Source: Dehalococcoidia bacterium (GTDB lineage: Bacteria; Chloroflexota; Dehalococcoidia; Lucifugimonadales; UBA3495). Taken from it: a stretch of DNA of 64,000 bases. The translations under genes and the position numbers were made by a program. The notes beneath the pieces are model-generated. The model did no database searches and was not told the DNA's origin. It saw only the letters and a program-made list of their open reading frames with translations. This document shows positions 712 to 11,880 of the stretch, piece by piece. The DNA lies in NCBI GenBank assembly GCA_965243255.1, contig CBDEUH010000004.1, positions 2,034,132-2,098,131 of the forward strand. Reading direction: 5' to 3'. Position 1 is the stretch's first letter. Each line of letters starts with the position of its first letter.

Positions 712-1140
712 TCATTCCCACACCCCCAGCTCCACCGGCCCGTCCTGGCGGAAGGTCGCCTCGAAGCGCACGGGCTCGCCGGCCCGGCTGCCGATGCGAT
801 AGGACAGGCACACAAACCCGCCGGATACGCGACGCTGCCCCCTGGCCTTGCCCGCCGGTCCGTACTGCACCGTTACGGAGCGGCCCACAATGCCCGACAA
901 CACGGCGTCCGGCCCAACGTTCAGCGCGTCGTCCCACAGGCCGTACAGGGTGAACTCCTGGGCCGCCTCCGGTCCGGCCGCGGTGCGCGCGGTGGTGTCG
1001 TTCACGCCGGTGATGTCCCGCGGGCTCAAGGCGCGCCCCAGGGGGCCGATGCGCTCCACCCAGGGCGACAGGTCGCGCAGGAGGCCGTCCCCGTCCGCTA
1101 CGGCCACGTAGCTGTGGCCAGCGCTGGCGTATCCGGTCAT
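712..1140 (-). CDS. small phage structural protein, tail-tube-like (function uncertain)
   Basis: 142 aa from ATG at 1140, 2 nt after the stop of the upstream gene. The listed extension to 1308 overlaps that gene and is rejected. The beta-rich C-terminus 'VTVQYGPAG..RVSGGFVCLSY..VRFEATF' and the position after the connector gene resemble siphovirus major tail/tube-like proteins. No diagnostic motif. Confidence 0.45.
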   Translation of the reverse strand: MTGYASAGHSYVAVADGDGLLRDLSPWVERIGPLGRALSPRDITGVNDTTARTAAGPEAAQEFTLYGLWDDALNVGPDAVLSGIVGRSVTVQYGPAGKARGQRRVSGGFVCLSYRIGSRAGEPVRFEATFRQDGPVELGVWE

Positions 1141-1142
1141 GG

Positions 1143-2006
1143 CTACACCCCCAGAACCGAGCTGCGACGGCGGTACGGAGCCAGCAGGGCCCGGGCCGTG
1201 GAGGAGACGCCGCCAACGTCTCCCCCACCCGCCGCCGGCGAACCCTCGGGCAGCGGGAAAGGACCGCCCGACCTCTCCCGCCACCAGACGGCAGCCTGCA
1301 GCAGGCACGCCTCCGCCACCGCCTTGGGGTAGCGGTACACCGACAACCCCGCGTCAACCGCGTGGGCTGCAGCGTCGGTTCCGTTGACCCCGCGCTGCAC
1401 GGTCAGGGTGGTCGTGCCGTCGCCGTCTGCTGCCCCGATGACGTACAGCTGCTCGTCGCCAATCCGCACGGTATGGCCGGGGGACAGGGCAACTGCGGCG
1501 TCGGCGCTGACCGGAGAGACGGTTACCGTGGTATCTCCGGCGGCTACGGCGGAGTCGGCGGCGACCAGCAACCCGGCGTCTTCGCGGACGTCGCCATAAC
1601 CCCAAACCCCGCTGACGGCGACGCCGGCCCGGTTGAGCGGAAACCGGCGCCGTTGGCTGGATGCCAGCAGGATGCGGGTGTAGGGCCGTCCGCCCGGTTC
1701 CGTTGGCGTCGCGTTCAGCGGATACAGCAGCCAGTCCGCCGCCGGCCAGTTCTGCCACCGTCCGGCGGCGCCCCGCACCCGCAGCGCGCTGACGGCGACC
1801 AGGTCGGGCACCAACAGGGTGGCGCGGCCCCGGCCGTCGAATCGACGTTCGCCGTGAATCGCCGCAAAGTGGCGTCCGCAGTGGCCGTCAATCCAGCGGG
1901 ACGACGCCTCCAGCAACCCCAGCAGCCGGCCGTCGTGGGCGTTGTCGGTAACGTTCAGAACCGAGGGGGATTTCAGGGCGCCCAGGTCAGCATAAGCGTT
2001 AGGCAT
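1143..2006 (-). CDS. phage gp6-like head-tail connector/adaptor-like protein with extra C-terminal region
   Basis: 287 aa with an AGGGAGGG RBS before ATG 2006. The N-terminal ~100 aa ('LLGLLEASSRWIDGHCGRHF..LLVPDLVAVSALRV') resemble the gp6-like connector family. Connectors are usually ~100-120 aa, so ~150 aa are extra. Confidence 0.55.
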   Translation of the reverse strand: MPNAYADLGALKSPSVLNVTDNAHDGRLLGLLEASSRWIDGHCGRHFAAIHGERRFDGRGRATLLVPDLVAVSALRVRGAAGRWQNWPAADWLLYPLNATPTEPGGRPYTRILLASSQRRRFPLNRAGVAVSGVWGYGDVREDAGLLVAADSAVAAGDTTVTVSPVSADAAVALSPGHTVRIGDEQLYVIGAADGDGTTTLTVQRGVNGTDAAAHAVDAGLSVYRYPKAVAEACLLQAAVWWRERSGGPFPLPEGSPAAGGGDVGGVSSTARALLAPYRRRSSVLGV

Positions 2007-2015
2007 AATCCCTCC

Positions 2016-3359
2016 CTACACCGTGATGTTGTATTGCAGGGCGGTGTGCGTCGCCGACGCCCGGGCGCCGGTGCGTTCCATGAAGGCCAGTCGCATACTG
2101 ACCACCATGACGTTCTGCCGCTTCTGGATGTCTCGGGTGGTTTCGATCATGAGCTCCCGGCGGAACCCCAGCCGCCACTGGGTGCGGTTCACCGCCAGCA
2201 GCCGGCCCTTGGTATTGCTGCTGCCGCCGTCGGTTACCATGCCGTCGGCGTCGGTCAACGCCATCTGCTCGGACACGATGACGGGGATGCCGTCCACCTG
2301 GGCCAGCTGCCCGTTGAGCAGGGTCGCCTGGGGCCCCAGCTTGTCCAGGGTGCGGAACTCGTCGATGCCCAGGGACTTGATGTAGGCCCCCACATCGGCG
2401 ACGTAGGCCAGCTCGGACGGGCGCACGCCGTACTTGCCCAGCATCCCGCGGGCCTCGTTGAACATATCGGCGGTGGGCGCGGCGCCGTGGTCGTTGGCCT
2501 GGGCGGTGTTGTCCACCAGGGGCAGGTGCAGCAGCCCGTCGAAACCGACCAGCCAGTGGGCCTTGCCCACCGTGGACGCGGCAATAGTCGCGCCGTCGGC
2601 GTTGATGTTGTTGGTTAGGGTGGTGTCCGCGTTCAGCAGGACGTCGTCAATGACCTCGACGGCGTTGCGCACCAGGGTGCTCCGCACCTCAGCCGCCATG
2701 GCGATGACGGCGTCCTCGTCCAGGGTCAGCGACCAGGGCACTTCTGCCACCAGTTCGTGAGCCGTCAGGGTCTGCCGGGCGGTGGTCAGGGCCGTCTCGG
2801 TAACCGCGGTGTTCTCAACGCCCGGATACCAGGACACGTTGCCCAGCTGGAGGGGTATCTCAAAGGGGTTGGTGGGCATGTCCACGCGGGCGAACAGGGA
2901 CGCTACGTGGGTGGCCACGTTGACGTCGGCCCACAGGGCGGCGGCCTCGGCGGTGGGCACCAGCTCGTCGCCGCTGCCCGCCGTGGTGCTATCCATGGCG
3001 GCCTTCAGGTTGGCTTGCCAGTCGGCCAGAAGGCGGGGGTTCACGTCGCCAGGTGTGCCTGGTAAAGGGTCGTGTTGCTGCGCCGCCAGCACGCTGCGCA
3101 CGCAGGCCAGGTCGAGGGCGTCCATCCCCCGGTACTTCCCGAAGGGGACGCGGGGGCGGTCACCGTCGCCGTATTGGGCCAGCATGGCCTGGCGTTCGCC
3201 GGCCCGCTGCTTCTCGGTAAGTTCGTTCACTGCCCGGCCCAGCCGGTCCAGTTCCTCCTGCAGGGGCGGGATGTCGGCGTCCAGCCGCTGGCGGTAGAAA
3301 TCCCGCACCTCGGCCACTTCGTTCTTGATGGTTTCCAGTTCCCAGCTCGAAAGCGTCAT
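2016..3359 (-). CDS. HK97-family phage major capsid protein with N-terminal delta (scaffold-like) domain
   Basis: 447 aa. An N-terminal coiled-coil segment ('ELETIKNEVAEVRDFYRQRLD..LDRLGRAVNELTEKQ') is followed by a capsid-like body. The gene sits immediately downstream of the prohead protease, with a GGAGA RBS. Confidence 0.8.
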   Translation of the reverse strand: MTLSSWELETIKNEVAEVRDFYRQRLDADIPPLQEELDRLGRAVNELTEKQRAGERQAMLAQYGDGDRPRVPFGKYRGMDALDLACVRSVLAAQQHDPLPGTPGDVNPRLLADWQANLKAAMDSTTAGSGDELVPTAEAAALWADVNVATHVASLFARVDMPTNPFEIPLQLGNVSWYPGVENTAVTETALTTARQTLTAHELVAEVPWSLTLDEDAVIAMAAEVRSTLVRNAVEVIDDVLLNADTTLTNNINADGATIAASTVGKAHWLVGFDGLLHLPLVDNTAQANDHGAAPTADMFNEARGMLGKYGVRPSELAYVADVGAYIKSLGIDEFRTLDKLGPQATLLNGQLAQVDGIPVIVSEQMALTDADGMVTDGGSSNTKGRLLAVNRTQWRLGFRRELMIETTRDIQKRQNVMVVSMRLAFMERTGARASATHTALQYNITV

Positions 3360-3410
3360 AATCTTTGCGTTCTCCTTTTTTGGATTAACTGTCTTGATAA
3401 AGGCCTATGC

Positions 3411-3941
3411 TTACTGCCGCAGTTCCCGCAGCAACCCCACCACCTCACTCACCGCTGGCCCCGTCTGGCTGAGGGAAAGGACATTCTCGCGGAGCAGCGC
3501 GCCCTGGTTGGCCGGCACGGGAACGGCGCTGATTTCCAGCAGTTCCTGCTCCAGGAAACGGATGCCGAGGAAGGCTCCGGTGCGGGGGTCCCGTCGTTCC
3601 TCGAACCGCAGGGGGCGGAAGCCTACGGAGACGCCCTGCTGGTAGCCGCTGCGGTACAGCGCCTCAACCTCCTGGGCGAACTCGGTGGGGGCGAACTCCA
3701 AGTGGGCCAGCAGGGCCCGGCCGTCGCTCCATACCGATTGGGCGCGCCCGATGGCCGGGCGGCGATAGTCGTGGGCCCACAGCACCACGGGGTTCGCCCG
3801 GTAGGCGTCCAGACGCCAGCCGTCGGGCGATACTACGTCGCCGTGACGGTCCACGGCGCCCGAGGACACTACGAAAGTCAGCGGGGCATCGCCGGCGGCG
3901 GTGGTGTCCTTAAGCGCCCACTTACGGGTCAGATTCGTCAT
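3411..3941 (-). CDS. HK97-family prohead (capsid maturation) protease
   Basis: 177 aa from ATG 3941, preceded by AGGAGG at 3946-3951. 'FVVSSGAVDRHGDVVSPDGW..ANPVVLWAHD' is the characteristic N-terminal region of this protease family. The listed start at 4001 lacks an RBS. Confidence 0.8.
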   Translation of the reverse strand: MTNLTRKWALKDTTAAGDAPLTFVVSSGAVDRHGDVVSPDGWRLDAYRANPVVLWAHDYRRPAIGRAQSVWSDGRALLAHLEFAPTEFAQEVEALYRSGYQQGVSVGFRPLRFEERRDPRTGAFLGIRFLEQELLEISAVPVPANQGALLRENVLSLSQTGPAVSEVVGLLRELRQ

Positions 3942-3999
3942 CGCAACCTCCTGAGTTGCTGGCCGGAGCGATGACGGAATCGGTTGATAGATGGCCGAC

Positions 4000-4050
4000 A
4001 AAAAGCCGGCGGAACCGACCCGGCATCAGGTCGGTCCTACCGGCTGTTTT
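4000..4050 (-). terminator. strong intrinsic terminator (bidirectional geometry) just upstream of the prohead protease gene
   Basis: GCCGG(4005-09)/CCGGC(4040-44) plus GGAACCGACC(4011-20)/GGTCGGTCC(4029-37) gives ~14 bp with one bulge and an 8-nt loop. It is flanked by AAAAA (4000-04, TTTTT on the minus strand) and TGTTTT (4045-50). Confidence 0.7.
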
Positions 4051-4128
4051 CAATTAGATTTATTCCAGCCTAACCTGGCGTGAGGCTGGCCGTTGACGGC
4101 CAGCTGTCATCCGCCGGAGTCGGCGGGC

Positions 4129-4180
4129 TGGGATTTGGGGATTTTCAGAATCAGGATTTTTGGGATTTGGGGATTTTCAG
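4129..4180. repeat. direct repeat, 2 x 20 nt 'tgggatttggggattttcag'
   Basis: Identical copies at 4129-4148 and 4161-4180 inside a G/T-rich tract (C/A-rich on the minus strand). GGGG runs at 4137, 4169, 4185 and 4197. Confidence 0.9.
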
Positions 4181-4300
4181 GATTGGGGTGTTGGTTGGGG
4201 TTGCCTCCGGTGGTTGGTGTTGGGTAGCCTGCGTGAGGTCGGTTTCCGGAATTCACTTTGGTCGTTGTCAGTCCCACGGCCGGGGGGTTCTTACGCACTT

Positions 4301-4488
4301 CCACTTCCAGTGTCTATGACGGTAGTCGGTTCTCCGCCAATGGCAGCTGTGGTCGCACCGTGCCACTTCCAGTGTCTATGACGGTAGTCGGTTCTCCGCC
4401 AATGGCAGCTGTGGCCGCACCGTTGCCACTTCCAGTGTCTATGACGGTAGTCGGTTCTCCGTCAATGGCAGCTGTGGCCGCACCGTTC
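4301..4488. repeat. tandem repeat, 3 units of 62-63 nt
   Basis: Units start at 4301, 4363 and 4426 with 'ccacttccagtgtctatgacggtagtcggttctccgccaatggcagctgtgg(t/c)cgcaccgt'. The copies differ by only about 3 substitutions/indels. Confidence 0.95.
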
Positions 4489-4594
4489 GTGCGATTTAGG
4501 ATTAGCTGACTGTTTTTGGCCGTTGACGACCGCAGTGATGTTGACCTCGTTGGCAGGCTGGGTTGGGTTACCGATTTGCGCTAGCGATGAGGCT

Positions 4595-4624
4595 ATTATG
4601 AACGGACGTTCTTATATTTGTCAA
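4595..4624 (-). promoter_or_regulatory. sigma70-type promoter pointing toward the repeats and capsid operon
   Basis: On the minus strand: TTGACA (4624-4619), 18-nt spacer, CATAAT (4600-4595). Confidence 0.55.
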
Positions 4625-4681
4625 GGGGGTTTTTGGCCCTTTTTCGTGGATTTTCGGGGTGAAGGACGCGCCTGGGGGCAT

Positions 4682-4709
4682 GAAAAGGGGGCGAATGGTG
4701 ATTCGCCCC
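4682..4709 (-). terminator. intrinsic terminator of the VOC-family gene
   Basis: On the minus strand: GGGGCGAAT-CACC-ATTCGCCCC (9-bp stem) followed by CTTTTC, about 30 nt after the stop at 4741. Confidence 0.7.
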
Positions 4710-4740
4710 GGTGCTGGTCGGTGAGTCGGTGCGGCGTTGG

Positions 4741-5232
4741 CTAGTCGTCGCCGGCGGCGGCTGGCTCCGGCTCCTCGATGGGGTCGAGCTGCCAGGGGAA
4801 GTTGCCTTCGAAAAGGAACCCGTCCTTGTTGCCCCATTCCGATTCCGGCGACTCGTAGTAAATCTCGATCTCGTTATCGTCGGGGTCGTAGATGTACACG
4901 CCCATGGAGATGCCGTGGTCGCCCAGCCTCTTGAACTTGACGCCGTGCTCCTTGCAGCGCTGGTACAGTTCCTTGAGGTCGCGGAAGGAATTCATCTGCC
5001 AGGCCATGTGGGCCATGCCCACCCGCCGGTCTTCCGGCCCGGGCGCGTCCATGCCCAGGGGAATCAACGCCAGCTCGTGGGACATGGTGGTGTCGGCGGA
5101 CAGGAACGTCATACCGCCGGGCCGGCCCGTCATCACGGTCAGGCCCAGGATGTTGGTGTAAAAGTCCACGCTGCGCTCAATGTCGCGGACCTTGATGACC
5201 AGATGGCCCAACTGTTTCGGTGTGTAGGACAT
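4741..5232 (-). CDS. VOC family protein (glyoxalase / extradiol dioxygenase fold)
   Basis: 163 aa from ATG 5232 with a CAGGGAGG RBS. 'LGHLVIKVRDIERSVDFYTNILGL' and 'GVYIYDPDDNEIEIY' are typical VOC beta-alpha-beta modules. Confidence 0.8.
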   Translation of the reverse strand: MSYTPKQLGHLVIKVRDIERSVDFYTNILGLTVMTGRPGGMTFLSADTTMSHELALIPLGMDAPGPEDRRVGMAHMAWQMNSFRDLKELYQRCKEHGVKFKRLGDHGISMGVYIYDPDDNEIEIYYESPESEWGNKDGFLFEGNFPWQLDPIEEPEPAAAGDD

Positions 5233-5282: not shown

Positions 5283-5340
5283 CATTATAACGCACCGGGC
5301 CAATTATGTGCATGTTGGCAAATTATGGTAAAACGCACCC
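5283..5340. promoter_or_regulatory. divergent control region with repeated AT-rich boxes
   Basis: 'aattatg' occurs at 5302-5308 and 5321-5327. 'aacgcacc' occurs at 5289-5296 and 5332-5339. A minus-strand TATAAT lies at about 5285-5290 and a plus-strand TATAAT at 5374-5379. Confidence 0.35.
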
Positions 5341-5425
5341 TAAGCGTCAGTATTGCCGGCCCGGTTCGGTTAGTATAATCTAGCACCGCCGGCCGTTGGA
5401 GTTTTCGGGCCACTCTCAGCTGACG

Positions 5426-7198
5426 ATGGACGTCCAGTTGCTGATGACGGAAACCACGCAAAATATCACGCCCCCCGGCAGCGCGCCGCACCGGGCGGCT
5501 TCCGGCAGTTTGCAGCCTCAGGCAGACTGGCCGGTCAACGGCGCCGTCAACGGCTCCGGCCTGGTGTTCAAGCCCGCTACCGAGGCCTGGGAATTCGAAG
5601 AGATTTCCCAGCTCAACTATGCCTCCTTCGTCGAAGAGGTGCCCCAGCATCCCGCCAACGACGACCATACCCTGGTGGACCGTTTCCACACCGAGAATAC
5701 CTATTTCATCTGCCGGCGGGAGCAGGAACTACTGGGGATGATTTGCGTCCGCGACCGCCGGCCCTTCTCCCTGGACCAGAAGCTTGGCCGGCTGGAAGAC
5801 CACCTGCCCCAGGCCGAAGGAGCCCGCCTCTGCGAGGTGCGCCTGCTGACGGTGCGGCCTGATTTGCGCGGCGCGCGCATCCTCCCCGGCCTGCTCACCA
5901 TGATGGCCCGGTACTGCCACGAAGGAGGCTACGACTACGTGGTGATGTCCGGTCGCGTCTCCCAGCAGCGGCTCTACCGCCGCATCGGGTTCATACCCTT
6001 CGGCCCGGTGGTGGGCGACGACGACGCGCCCTATCAGCCGATGTATCGGCCCGTGGGCAACGTCGCGGTGGAGTTTGCAGGCCAGTTCCACGAAGCGGTT
6101 GACGCACCCGCCGGCGATCCGGTCATACTCACGCCCGGCCCGGTGGCCATGCCCGAAACCGTTGCCCAGGCCTTCCGCCGCCCGCCGCTGTCCCACCGCC
6201 TGCCCGAGTTCCGGAGGTTGATGCGCAGCGCCCGGCAGGGTTTGTGCCGGCTCACCGGCGCCAAGCACTGCGCCATTATGGTCGGGTCCGGCACCATGGC
6301 CAACGACGTGGTGGCGGCCCAGCTGTCCCGGCTCAACGCTCCGGGTGTCATCGTAACCGCCGGCGAGTTCGGCGAGCGCCTGCTGGACCATGCCAACCGC
6401 ATGGGCCTGCGCTACACTCCCGTGTCGCACCAATGGGGCGCGCCGCTGGACTATGACCGCATCCAGCAGGCGGTGGCCGAGACCAGTTCAGCCACCGATG
6501 CCGGCGGCTGGCTGTGGACGGTGCACTGCGAGACATCCTCCGGCGCGCTGGCCGACCTGCCCCGGCTCAAAGCCATCTGCCAAAAGCACAACGCCCACCT
6601 GGCCCTGGACTGCATCAGCAGCATCGCCACTACCCACGTTGACCTGTCCGGCGTCCGGCTGGCCAGCGGCGCCAGCGGGAAGGGGCTAGCGGCTTATCCC
6701 GGCCTGGGGCTGGTATTCTGCCAGGAGCGTCCCGAACCCGACCCCGCGCTGCCCCGTTACCTGGACCTGGGTCTGCACTGCGCCGGTGAAGACGACGGCG
6801 CCGTGCCCTTCACACTGTCCTCCAACCTGTTGGCGGCGTTGGAGGCCGGCGTGGCGCGTCAAACGCCGGAACTGCTGACACAGGTGGAGGAAGATGGACG
6901 GTGGCTGCGTCAACAGCTGCGCGCGCTGGGTCTGACGCTGGTGGCATCGGAGGCGGAGAGCATCGGCGCGGTAACCACCATCGCGTTGGCGGAAAACGGC
7001 ATCGACTCGGAGCAGATGGGGCGCGCCCTGGATTCCCTGGGCTTCTGCACGTCCTACGCCAGCGGCTATCTGCGCGAGCGCAACTGGCTGCAAATCTGCC
7101 TGCTGGGGGAAGTGAGCCGCCCGCAACTGGAACGGCTGCTGCCCGTGCTGGCGGCGCAGCTGGACGCCCTGACGCGCGTTCGAATCGCCACGGGCTAG
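5426..7198 (+). CDS. GNAT N-acetyltransferase domain fused to class V aminotransferase domain
   Basis: The N-terminal ~200 aa are GNAT-like ('LCEVRLLTVRPDLRGARI..YRRIGF'). The remainder is class-V aminotransferase-like ('ILTPGPVAMPETV..SHRLPEF..VGSGT'). Start is uncertain: ATG 5426 or 5444; the listed 5396 is TTG. Confidence 0.7.
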   Translation: MDVQLLMTETTQNITPPGSAPHRAASGSLQPQADWPVNGAVNGSGLVFKPATEAWEFEEISQLNYASFVEEVPQHPANDDHTLVDRFHTENTYFICRREQELLGMICVRDRRPFSLDQKLGRLEDHLPQAEGARLCEVRLLTVRPDLRGARILPGLLTMMARYCHEGGYDYVVMSGRVSQQRLYRRIGFIPFGPVVGDDDAPYQPMYRPVGNVAVEFAGQFHEAVDAPAGDPVILTPGPVAMPETVAQAFRRPPLSHRLPEFRRLMRSARQGLCRLTGAKHCAIMVGSGTMANDVVAAQLSRLNAPGVIVTAGEFGERLLDHANRMGLRYTPVSHQWGAPLDYDRIQQAVAETSSATDAGGWLWTVHCETSSGALADLPRLKAICQKHNAHLALDCISSIATTHVDLSGVRLASGASGKGLAAYPGLGLVFCQERPEPDPALPRYLDLGLHCAGEDDGAVPFTLSSNLLAALEAGVARQTPELLTQVEEDGRWLRQQLRALGLTLVASEAESIGAVTTIALAENGIDSEQMGRALDSLGFCTSYASGYLRERNWLQICLLGEVSRPQLERLLPVLAAQLDALTRVRIATG

Positions 7199-7557
7199 TC
7201 CAGCAACGCCAGTACGCGGTGCACAAACCTATGCACATACTGTGGATCCCGCTGTAACTGCAGCTCATCCATAAACAGATGGTAGAAGTTGGCGTGGAAC
7301 TTTTCCGCGACAGCGAAATCGGAACCCAGAGCACTATCGCCCTGTTCCGTCGCCAGCCTCTCTGCCGCAATTTTCAAGTCCCGGTGGCTGCCGTATTTCC
7401 AACCTCGCCGCTGAGCCACCGCGATGACGGCCTGGGACGCTGCCCCCCATAACTTCTCCGACCCTTGGGCCTCGTCGCCGGCGGCAAACTCCCGCTCGGA
7501 CGCGGCCAGGAACTCCAGGGCTGTCGCTGCGCGGCGCTGCTCAGTCATAGTAGTCAT
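7195..7557 (-). CDS. PaREP1-like small helical protein (HEPN-related fold)
   Basis: 120 aa. 'GSEKLWGAASQAVIAVAQRRGW' and 'AEKFHANFYH' match my recollection of the PaREP1/PaREP8 family pattern. Its 3' end overlaps the convergent aminotransferase gene by 4 nt. Confidence 0.5.
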   Translation of the reverse strand: MTTMTEQRRAATALEFLAASEREFAAGDEAQGSEKLWGAASQAVIAVAQRRGWKYGSHRDLKIAAERLATEQGDSALGSDFAVAEKFHANFYHLFMDELQLQRDPQYVHRFVHRVLALLD

Positions 7558-7650
7558 AATTTACTTTACCATGCCCTGGCTTGATTGACGGCAGGGGCAA
7601 GCTTCAAACCTGCCCCCGCTCGTCTCTGAACCTGTTGTGGCGTGCTGTTG

Positions 7651-9927
7651 CTACGCGCCTTCCAGGTTCTTCATGTGGTTCATCGCGCTGCCGGCGCGGA
7701 ACCAGGCGATCTGGGTGTCGTTGAGCGTGTGGCGCAGGTTTAGCGTCTCCTCGCTGCCGTCGGCGTGCTTCAGGATGGCTTGCACCGGGCGGCCCGGGGC
7801 CAGATCGTTCAGCCCGACCAGGCTCATCCGGTCGTCGTCCAGCACGCGTTCCCAGTCCGCCGGGTCCTCGAAGGTCAGCGGCAGCAGGCCCTGCTTCTTG
7901 AGGTTGGACTCGTGGATGCGGGCAAAGCTGCGGGTAATGATGGCCGCCGCGCCCAGCATCCGGGGCGACAGAGCGGCGTGCTCGCGGCTGGAACCCTCGC
8001 CGTAGTTCTCGTCGCCGATGGCCACCCAGCGGATGCCCTGGGCGCTGTAAGCGCGGGCGATCTCCGGGATGGGCATAATCTCCTCGCCGGAGAGTTGGTT
8101 CTTGCCGGTGCCCGTTTCGTCGGTGTAGGCGTTGTTGGCGGCCAGGAACATATTGTCGCTGAGGTTGTTCAGGTGGCCGCGGAACCGGAGCCAGGGGCCG
8201 GCCGGCGAAATGGAGTCCGTGGTGGTCTTGCCCTCGGTTTTAACCAGGATGGGAACGTCCTCGAAGTCGTTGCCGTCCCAGGGTTCCCAGGGCTGCAGCA
8301 CCTGGAGGCGGTTGCTCTCCGGGTCAACGCGCACTTCCACGTCGCTGCCGTCTTCCGGCGGATCCACATACAGATCGGCGCCGGGGTCAAAGCCGGTGGG
8401 GGGCACTTCCGGCGCTTCCGTCGGCGGCTGCAGCATGAACTCGTTGCCGTCGGCGTCCACCAGCGGGTCGGTGAGCGGGTTGAAGGACAGGCTGCCGCCC
8501 AGGCCCATGGCCACGGCCAGTTCGGGGCTGGCGATGAAGTTCATGGTGCCGGCGTTGCCGTCGTTGCGGCTGGGGAAGTTGCGGTTGTAGGAGGTTACGA
8601 TGCTGTTGTCGGTGCCGCGGGCTTCGGGGCGGTTCCACTGGCCGATGCAGGGGCCGCAGGCGTTGGCCAGCACCGTCGCGCCGATTTCCTCCAGCGCGGC
8701 CTGCTGTCCGTCCCGCTCGATGGTGGCGCGCACCTGCTCGGAGCCGGGCGTTACGAGCAGTCCTGACGCCGCCTTGACGCCACGGGCCGCCGCCTGCCGC
8801 GCCACGTCGGCGCAGCGTTCCATGTCTTCGTAGGAGGAGTTGGTGCAGCTGCCCACCAGGGCGACCGACACCCTTTCGGGGAACCCTTCGCGTTCGGTCT
8901 CGGCCTTCAGCGCGGAGATGGGGCGCGCCCGGTCCGGCGAGTGGGGGCCGGTAACGTGGGGTTCCAGCGTGGAAAGGTCAATCTCCACGATGCGGTCGTA
9001 GTACTGCTCCGGCTGCTGCTCAACCTCGGGGTCGGACTGCAGCAGGTGGAGGTATTCCTCGGCGATGGCAACCAGGTCGCCCCGGCCCGTGGCCCGCAGG
9101 TAGGTGGCCATTCGCTCGTCGTAGGGGAACACGTCGCCGGTTGCGCCCAGCTCGGCGCCCATGTTGCAGATGGTGCCCTTGCCGGTGGCGGAGATGGACG
9201 CCGCGCCCGGCCCGAAGTACTCGATGATGGAGTTGGTGCCGCCGGACACCGTAAGCTCAAGGGCCAGCTTGATGATGACGTCCTTGGGCGCCGTCCAGCC
9301 GCTCATGGCGCCGGTGAGTTTGACGCCGATGATTTGGGGATAGCGCACTTCCCAGGGCAGTCCGGCCATCACGTCCGCCGCGTCCGCGCCGCCCACGCCG
9401 ATGGCCAGCGAACCCAGGCCGCCGCCGTTGACCGTGTGCGAGTCAGTACCGATAATCAACGCGCCGGGGTAGGCGTACTTTTCCAGCACAACCTGATGGA
9501 CGATGCCGGAGCCGGGCTTCCAGAACCCCATGCCGTAGCGTCGGCTGGCCGATTCCAGGAACTGATAGACCTCGTTGCTCTCGTTGAGGGCGTCCTGGAG
9601 GTCGGAGGACGCGCCCACTCGCGCCTGGATCAGGTGGTCGCAGTGCACGGTGGTGGGCACGGCGACGCGGTCGCGCCCGGACTGCATGAACTGCAGGATG
9701 GCCATCTGGCCGGTAACGTCCTGGTGGGCCACGCGGTCGGGCCGCAGGTTGATGTAGCTGTCGCCGGGGCGCAGGTCGGCGTCGGCGACGTCGTCCAGGT
9801 GGGAGAGCAGCAGCTTTTCGGACATCGTCAGCGGGCGATTCAGCCGGGCCCGCACCTGGGTCAGCTTTTCATCCATCTTGCGATAGGTTTCGCGCACGAA
9901 TGCCGGCGTGGAGTCAATGTTACTCAT
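7651..9927 (-). CDS. acn: aconitate hydratase (mitochondrial-type, ~750 aa)
   Basis: 'IGTDSHT', 'VGSCTNSSYED', 'NACGPCIGQW' and 'SYNRNFPSRNDG' are Fe-S ligand and active-site motifs. GAGGAGG RBS. Confidence 0.92.
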   Translation of the reverse strand: MSNIDSTPAFVRETYRKMDEKLTQVRARLNRPLTMSEKLLLSHLDDVADADLRPGDSYINLRPDRVAHQDVTGQMAILQFMQSGRDRVAVPTTVHCDHLIQARVGASSDLQDALNESNEVYQFLESASRRYGMGFWKPGSGIVHQVVLEKYAYPGALIIGTDSHTVNGGGLGSLAIGVGGADAADVMAGLPWEVRYPQIIGVKLTGAMSGWTAPKDVIIKLALELTVSGGTNSIIEYFGPGAASISATGKGTICNMGAELGATGDVFPYDERMATYLRATGRGDLVAIAEEYLHLLQSDPEVEQQPEQYYDRIVEIDLSTLEPHVTGPHSPDRARPISALKAETEREGFPERVSVALVGSCTNSSYEDMERCADVARQAAARGVKAASGLLVTPGSEQVRATIERDGQQAALEEIGATVLANACGPCIGQWNRPEARGTDNSIVTSYNRNFPSRNDGNAGTMNFIASPELAVAMGLGGSLSFNPLTDPLVDADGNEFMLQPPTEAPEVPPTGFDPGADLYVDPPEDGSDVEVRVDPESNRLQVLQPWEPWDGNDFEDVPILVKTEGKTTTDSISPAGPWLRFRGHLNNLSDNMFLAANNAYTDETGTGKNQLSGEEIMPIPEIARAYSAQGIRWVAIGDENYGEGSSREHAALSPRMLGAAAIITRSFARIHESNLKKQGLLPLTFEDPADWERVLDDDRMSLVGLNDLAPGRPVQAILKHADGSEETLNLRHTLNDTQIAWFRAGSAMNHMKNLEGA

Positions 9928-11851: not shown

Positions 11852-11880
11852 ATGATATTCGCTGCACTGCCGATTGTCAA
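11852..11880 (-). promoter_or_regulatory. sigma70-type promoter of the Lrp/AsnC gene
   Basis: On the minus strand: TTGACA (11880-11875), 17 nt, TATCAT (11857-11852), in an AT-rich spacer. Confidence 0.55.

Follow-up and report, generated by a model that had tools for sequence, protein, structure and literature searches.

In lambdoid phages, late control is laid out as a promoter (PR'), a Q-binding element (QBE) with a pause site and a terminator (tR', 6S RNA), the antiterminator being Q, and in phage HK022 the leader of an operon contains put, a cis-acting RNA with two stem-loops, whose modules are ~65-70 nt long. Antitermination control is also known from the alp system of Pseudomonas aeruginosa and, as found recently, from alphaproteobacterial gene transfer agents (GTAs). 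In P. aeruginosa, AlpA recognises an element in the promoter of alpBCDE and lets polymerase bypass the intrinsic terminator downstream (PMC7969949, PMC9371919). In the GTA cluster of Caulobacter, GafZ bypasses a terminator, terGTA, that consists of three tandem direct repeats (PMC11150451), and in Bartonella BrrG acts on an 864-bp, terminator-bearing leader that precedes the GTA capsid operon (bioRxiv 10.1101/2024.11.20.624540). Here, we describe the leader of a phage-like capsid operon on the minus strand of a 64-kb stretch of DNA (the window, i.e. the whole stretch that was analysed) from the GC-rich (~65%) chromosome of a SAR202-type Dehalococcoidia (marine Chloroflexota). Alignment with its relatives indicates that the last ~110 nt of this leader (4109-4000) is an old cassette, made of a promoter and an intrinsic terminator, which moves with the operon.

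The original prediction, made from the letters of the window, had treated the entire 590 nt between a distant promoter and this terminator as one unit. Our comparison set consists of ~90 orthologous Dehalococcoidia (SAR202-type) loci, labelled L001 and so on, with promoter and terminator tallies made over ~75 of them and the pattern search over 89. At these orthologues, the far promoter, the tandem repeats, the C/A-rich tract and the hairpin at 4111-4126 are all absent, except in the lineage of L081 and L082. Because it is missing beside orthologous capsid loci, the very outcome that the prediction had named as counting against it, the 590-nt unit is not a conserved element. What has lasted is the logic that had been likened to PR'-tR', in which a promoter and a terminator stand in front of phage structural genes, since both are conserved across ~75 orthologous loci.

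The conserved terminator

The strong intrinsic terminator that had been proposed at 4000-4050 is plainly there (4000-4045, minus strand), with a stem at 4045-4005, a 4-nt loop and a U-run at 4004-4000, and it folds far better than shuffled sequences (dG -35.1 kcal/mol, z-score -6.1). When the leader was compared by BLAST with 80 loci, only its last ~130 nt were found (window ~4074-3942), and reading the architecture from the 200 nt preceding each protease start revealed a homologous hairpin in all ~75 loci, 24-197 nt before the protease start codon and followed by the tail TTTTTG(T/C)TG. The U-run is intact after the stem in 73 of these 75 loci, the exceptions being L040 and L044. Across 40 near-clade loci the hairpin is 85-97% identical. 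The distance from promoter to hairpin is ~20 nt in the clade of the window, the hairpin lying at about +14, and 50-150 nt in remoter clades.

Conservation extends to the structure. In the far clade (31 sequences), 93.5% of the alignment cells pair, one stem position shows six different pair types, and double changes occur in 26 cells as against 8.1 in shuffles (0/500), while the base of the stem, GGGAC/GUCCC, is invariant. In the near clade, 97.6% of the cells pair and all nine variable pairs differ on one side, via G.U; because the variation runs through G.U pairs, pairing is maintained for the sense-strand RNA only. A covariance model built from far-clade hairpins gives one sense match per far-clade locus (36-58 bits, as against 16-30 bits for antisense) and also recovers loci that were absent from its training set. 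The element therefore has what marks an intrinsic terminator, namely a GC-rich stem-loop followed by a U-run, whose structure and not just sequence has been kept in evolution. The consensus fold of far-clade leaders yields this terminator alone, and the extra GC hairpin seen in single far-clade folds does not align between loci. As a side observation, many far-clade loci (e.g. L043 7098-7140 and L058 6922-6965) carry between promoter and terminator an A-rich motif resembling ACAACNGAATAG and then a GC-rich hairpin, the sequence of which is wholly replaced between species and which is found neither in the near clade nor in the window.

The genes upstream of the cassette vary from genome to genome (VOC, HicAB-like, YbjQ or oxidoreductase) and homology with the window begins at ~4111, so that the hairpin is part of the operon rather than a terminator serving the gene next door. 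Two loci have more than one cassette. In L133, an IMG/VR contig with 51% capsid identity, a second one (7340-7425) lies directly before the major-tail-like gene and consists of TTGACA-N17-TAGTAT and, immediately after it, a GGGAC hairpin with its U-run, which the covariance model scores at 41 bits. In L014 (4900-5200), leader, hairpin and first protease codons are repeated upstream, in a copy that has ~130 nt inserted between leader start and hairpin; this duplication is independent of that seen in the window. Apart from L133 and L014, neither the window nor the +-8 kb around the orthologous loci has a further cassette.

The conserved promoter

Just upstream of the terminator lies a tripartite promoter (4067-4109, minus strand), with TGACA at 4109-4105, a -35 element TCAACG at 4096-4091, an 18-nt spacer and a -10 element TAGGCT at 4072-4067, which would start transcription at ~4060. 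The consensus is TGACA-N8-TTGACN-N18-TAnnCT, and its core, TTGACN-N18-TAnnCT, was found in 71 of 75 loci with the 18-nt spacing fixed. In 60 of the 89 loci the exact tripartite pattern is found, as a single copy that invariably precedes the protease gene on the sense strand, and the tripartite promoter is matched only once in the 64 kb of the window. Position profiles and comparison of the loci identify as invariant the TGACA element, the length of the spacer and position 5 of the -10. The window has the sole copy with TCAACG as -35, its relatives having TTGACN. The element is a predicted promoter of the sigma-70 type, in which the -10 (TAnnCT) is weak and the -35 is preceded, at a distance of 8 nt, by an additional TGACA. 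In the window it ends only ~15 nt ahead of the terminator hairpin.

This calls for one correction to the earlier reading. The two GC hairpins that had been described, at 4111-4126 and 4085-4104, do fold (region 4080-4135, z -5.4), with the qualification that the second is a palindrome overlapping the -35 region of the conserved promoter. The operon therefore does have a promoter of its own, upstream of the terminator and not in the gap of ~50 nt downstream of it. In that gap (3942-3999, minus strand), where no separate promoter had been visible to the earlier reading either, the promoter scan found no promoter-like site. The same spacer, conserved in alignments of the near clade, contains as predicted the Shine-Dalgarno sequence AGGAGG (3952-3947), and the protease ATG follows at 3941.

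A recent, lineage-specific leader

The rest of the leader (4110-4686), which takes in the other ~480 nt of the unit first proposed (4110-4624), is, as its distribution among relatives indicates, a recent, lineage-specific stretch built with degenerate duplicates of the cassette. The long leader is common only to the window and two sponge-metagenome contigs, L081 and L082 (capsid 95%). Four other close relatives, L083, L084, L091 and L092 (capsid 90-94%), are homologous to the window only from ~4111 downward and carry upstream of that point other sequence or genes such as YbjQ. Outside its array, the 63-nt repeat unit does not recur in the window, and of all loci only L081 has it; a metagenome scan returned only three unrelated chance matches. 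The protease and VOC proteins of the window have no exact record, and no second full-length long leader could therefore be obtained. A word of caution is thus in order, since conservation is lowest in just those features that strike the eye most, the long leader and its tandem repeats.

At the upstream end, the near-consensus promoter that had been noticed (TTGACA-18-CATAAT, 4595-4624, minus strand) is present, matches at 11 of 12 positions and has a predicted start at ~4588. Matches of at least 11/12 number two in the 64 kb and zero in 30 Markov simulations, and the far promoter is unlikely to be a chance match. It was seen in the window alone, the contigs of L081 and L082 stopping within the repeat array, short of it. 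The other 11/12 sigma-70-type match in the window is TTGACA-17-TATCAT at 11852-11880 (minus strand). Between the far promoter and the conserved hairpin (4595-4050, minus strand), the terminator scan found no terminator-like site.

Several duplicated pieces follow, all on the minus strand. Copy A (4486-4562) is a degenerate duplicate, with deletions (ATCACTGC-GGTCGTCAACGGCCA ... CTAAATCGCACGAA), of the promoter and leader start of the cassette, with which it shares direct repeats at a spacing of 430; its local alignments exceed those of shuffles, at p ~0.001 for the cassette promoter of the window itself (copy B) and p ~0.005 for the L004 leader. The three tandem repeats of 62-63 nt, correctly recognised from the start, occupy 4299-4487 (TRF: period 63, 3.0 copies, 97% matches, spacing 62 and 63). 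The segment after the repeats (4231-4298) retains remnants of the 5' arm of the terminator, GCCGTGGGACTGAC at 4280-4267 (p ~0.002 against the 5' arm of the L004 hairpin) and ACCGACCT at 4243-4236, with no 3' arm. This segment, shared with L082, is identical at 67 of 68 positions between the window and L081, to be compared with 73-79% at third codon positions of the adjoining genes, which could be from selective constraint or recent recombination. It contains no open reading frame (ORF) and no stable RNA fold (z +1.5; 4222-4305 is less structured than shuffles). Next comes the C/A-rich, G-poor tract (4129-4230; C 42, A 39, T 12 and G 9 of 102, i.e. C 41% and G 9%), which is less structured than shuffles (z +1.9). 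Rho utilisation (rut) sites are C-rich, G-poor and unstructured stretches of untranslated RNA, ~80 nt or longer, and by its composition and lack of structure the tract may be a candidate. The duplication noticed in this tract measures 32 nt per unit (4129-4160 and 4161-4192) and is not in L081/L082. The last piece is the GC hairpin CCGCCGACTCCGGCGG at 4111-4126, identified by folding and again lineage-specific. The GC content is lower than in the flanks, as had been said (0.58 for 4001-5000 vs 0.62-0.72).

There is no credible ORF in the leader, in agreement with the earlier reading, because the 62/63 spacing breaks the frame and the 32-nt indel relative to L081/L082 cuts every ORF across the C/A tract; with no frame-preserving conservation, a protein-coding gene or small ORF was rejected. 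The suggestion that the repeats are modules like those of HK022 put, or some other structured repeat RNA, fared no better: the fold is no better than that of shuffles for one repeat unit (z -0.4) or for two (z -1.6), the repeats are lineage-specific and they match no Rfam family. No Rfam family reached its gathering score anywhere in the window, 3850-4750 giving only chance-level matches (E ~1 or more), and there is no tRNA or tmRNA. The full 594-nt leader folds with z -2.25, the terminator being intact in both its minimum-free-energy and centroid folds. Repeat 1 contains TTGACG-N18-TAGACA, which MAFFT aligns in register with the promoter; as local alignment against shuffles gives p 0.26-0.43, the idea that the 63-nt repeats are copies of the core promoter is a mere suggestion and was set aside. 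A tandem-repeat terminator of the terGTA kind was also rejected, the 63-nt units lacking strong inverted repeats and U-runs and 4299-4487 having no terminator-like site.

The gap between VOC gene and cassette is itself a variable hotspot of 0.15-6 kb (window 4110-4686, L001 3300-6750, L083 2290-3160, L088 5950-9120). According to the genome, its cargo is a HicAB-like toxin-antitoxin, YbjQ, an FAD oxidoreductase with a trypsin-like protease, or non-coding DNA only. A distant relative, L089, has a tandem row of four PaREP1-family genes (7191-8687) immediately before the module, and L088 has one PaREP1 gene.

The downstream module and its setting

The operon, on the minus strand throughout, begins with a prohead serine protease of the S78 family (3411-3941; Pfam PF04586 Peptidase_S78, E 1.4e-9; PHROG head maturation protease), followed by an HK97-type major capsid protein (2016-3359; Pfam PF05065 Phage_capsid). 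Two further genes were placed in the window by tblastn and annotated on their L081 orthologues, one for a head-tail adaptor-like protein of ~285 aa (1146-2006; phrog_442, E 4e-16) and one for a major-tail-like protein of ~141 aa (718-1140; phrog_10528, E 4e-10). The loci have a constant gene set, made of protease, capsid, ~285-aa adaptor-like and ~141-aa major-tail-like genes, and usually also a gene for a ~670-aa protein. This five-gene module (window 718-3941) is present in the genomes of 219 Dehalococcoidia species representatives and is single copy at each locus inspected (L001-L092). The protease varies in length: in L001 (6927-7847) it has an in-frame N-terminal tandem-repeat insertion (repeats ~7080-7270) and reaches 306 aa vs 176 aa in the window, and the gene calls in L088, L089 and L090 are also longer (213-226 aa).

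The window is part of a bacterial chromosome, not of a phage genome. No portal or terminase gene lies within 10 kb of the module, whose flanks are metabolic genes, and in the window no integrase or transposase is adjacent. Capsid homologues number more than 1400 (identity 65-95%), and a genome scan found capsid relatives in 219 species representatives, all of them Dehalococcoidia/Chloroflexota metagenome-assembled genomes, including SAR202 and sponge symbionts. Divergence of the capsid parallels that of the neighbouring aconitase gene. With capsid identities of 59% and 41%, the remoter relatives in IMG/VR are phage-like contigs, which have portal and large terminase genes upstream and lack the leader terminator. 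The nearest capsid of an isolated phage has only 24% identity, and the leader shows no similarity to isolated phage genomes. The module has the look of a phage remnant that has been domesticated and is inherited vertically. It is a possible GTA-like candidate, and no description of it was found in the literature searched.

Upstream of the leader, the window encodes VOC, a GNAT-aminotransferase fusion and aconitase. The VOC/glyoxalase gene does have the terminator of its own that had been assigned to it (4682-4709, minus strand; stem 4709-4688, then a T-rich tail, by terminator scan), and L092 has a similar hairpin after its VOC gene. Further upstream of VOC, in a divergent intergenic region shared with the GNAT-aminotransferase gene, four promoter-like sites overlap at 5284-5350 (minus strand).

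How might the leader work?

We favour, with moderate confidence, a model in which the leader terminator gates a domesticated phage-like operon and is opened by a trans-acting antitermination factor or by blocking of the hairpin. Polymerase from either promoter would normally halt at 4004-4000, the core promoter giving a terminated RNA of ~60 nt and the far promoter a non-coding RNA of ~590 nt, and the operon would be expressed only once polymerase has become terminator-resistant or the hairpin is blocked. Either change would probably be brought about by a trans-acting factor, in the manner of lambda Q, AlpA, GafZ or BrrG, which would load at TGACA/spacer in the promoter or else bind the GGGAC stem. 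Given that the stem base never varies, and neither do TGACA, the length of the spacer and position 5 of the -10 in the promoter, we favour such a dedicated factor over a passive attenuator. Since the old promoter of the window has a damaged -35 (TCAACG), the far promoter may have taken over initiation there, with the terminator still the gate, and the C/A tract, rut-like in composition, may add Rho-dependent attenuation.

A number of points weigh against this model. No candidate antiterminator gene (Q, AlpA, BrrG or GafZ-like) is found within +-10 kb of the module at any locus. A NANNNT pause element occurs within 20 nt in 34 of 53 distinct sequences, compared with 39 expected from shuffles, and its position is not conserved. 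In L133 and L051, the hairpin starts almost at the predicted transcription start, which is unusually near for a regulated terminator. What keeps the stem base invariant could be binding at the level of DNA and not a contact with RNA. The degraded -35 of the core promoter in the window leaves two candidate start promoters, and how active these are, how efficiently the hairpin terminates and how much is read through are predictions from sequence. Membership of the Q-type family is not established: a promoter and a terminator do precede late structural genes, no regulator gene is linked and the pause element is not enriched.

A bolder proposal, which we regard as possible and put forward tentatively, is that a putative class-wide head-tail module of Dehalococcoidia, GTA-like or some other domesticated particle, is switched by a new antitermination system that recognises the TGACA element and/or the GGGAC/GUCCC stem, and that in the lineage of the window the duplicated pieces and 4231-4298 form a functional extension, either a decoy or a second input that works through the strong promoter.

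Among the alternatives, the one that survives best is that the hairpin is a partly leaky terminator or attenuator, which keeps the module constantly low with no dedicated factor, and that the 480 nt upstream are neutral debris of duplication and slippage. The absence of both a linked regulator gene and a pause-element signature is what it would predict, and so is the fact that repeats and duplications differ between close lineages (the 32-nt indel, contigs breaking inside the array) and that the repeats have no significant fold. We nevertheless consider it unlikely, because (i) the stem base is invariant across ~75 species while the mid-stem covaries, which exceeds the needs of a simple terminator, (ii) the TGACA element and spacer length are invariant as well, (iii) efficient termination is to be expected of U5 after a stem of -35 kcal/mol and (iv) neutral debris does not sit well with 67/68 identity in 4231-4298 where neutral sites show 73-79%.

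A role at the DNA level, in which the region is a recombination or integration hotspot with att-like scars, or the promoter-like repeats are extra or decoy sites for a TGACA/TTGAC binder, is improbable in our view. It would fit the differing cargo in the gap between VOC gene and cassette, the partial cassette duplications that arose independently in the window and L014, and the in-register alignment of repeat 1 with the promoter. The similarity between repeats and promoter is, however, non-significant, and no integrase or transposase adjoins the region in the window. Such a role would moreover account for the origin of the region and not for the conserved terminator, and is compatible with gating of the operon by that terminator.

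There is, we believe, little chance that the 590-nt transcript (4588-4000) is a free RNA with a regulatory or structural function, whether in trans or in the assembly of particles, or that its 63-nt repeats are put-like cis antiterminators, and nothing points to an RNA used in packaging. The promoter-to-terminator layout without ORF would suit such an RNA, as would leader conservation between the window and L081 above that of synonymous sites, notably in 4231-4298, and the slightly better than shuffled fold of the entire leader. Against this, the region is missing from orthologous loci outside one shallow lineage, neither one nor two repeat units fold significantly, both the C/A tract and 4222-4305 have less structure than shuffled sequence, and there is no Rfam match even at E 10; for self-antitermination in the manner of put, there is the added difficulty that the terminator hairpin still forms in the full-length folds. 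Finally, that the hairpin is a 5' stem-loop stabilising the operon mRNA, for which one could invoke how near it lies to the predicted start (about +14 in the near clade, almost +1 in L133 and L051), is very improbable, as a stabiliser needs no U-run directly after the stem and the far-clade hairpin lies 50-150 nt from the promoter.

Comparison with known systems

Set beside HK022 put, the leader is alike in its position and in the size of its unit (~63 nt vs 65-70 nt), and unlike it in that the repeats have no significant or conserved two-stem-loop, are lineage-specific and leave the fold of the terminator unhindered in silico. With lambdoid Q control, the locus shares a promoter, a strong intrinsic terminator close by and then head/tail genes, a short terminated RNA being predicted here, and conserved elements in and just upstream of the promoter. 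It departs from Q control in that (i) there is no Q-family gene upstream, the neighbours being metabolic, (ii) there is no conserved -10-like pause element, (iii) the extra element lies upstream of the -35 and not only between -35 and -10 and (iv) the operon is chromosomal, vertically inherited and without portal or terminase.

As in the AlpA-alpBCDE system, an intrinsic terminator stands between a promoter, here a predicted one, and phage-derived genes on a chromosome, with the differences that no AlpA-like gene was found near the module and that the putative targets are capsid and tail instead of lysis genes. Compared with the GTAs of Caulobacter and Bartonella, the hosts are Chloroflexota and not Alphaproteobacteria, a single canonical hairpin is involved, and the three 63-nt repeats, unlike terGTA, are neither GC-rich inverted repeats nor terminator-like. 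What is common to all three is a domesticated phage-like structural cluster that is, or in our case would be, gated by a terminator, preceded in Bartonella too by a long non-coding leader. The present work brings to notice a probably domesticated phage-derived module and provides, in the tripartite promoter and the GGGAC terminator, handles for seeking its regulator and more loci of the same regulon. It also extends the cis-logic of leader-terminator control to a new phylum, the abundant uncultured Chloroflexota of the sea and of sponges, where this logic is deeply conserved and stands before a portal-less capsid-tail module.

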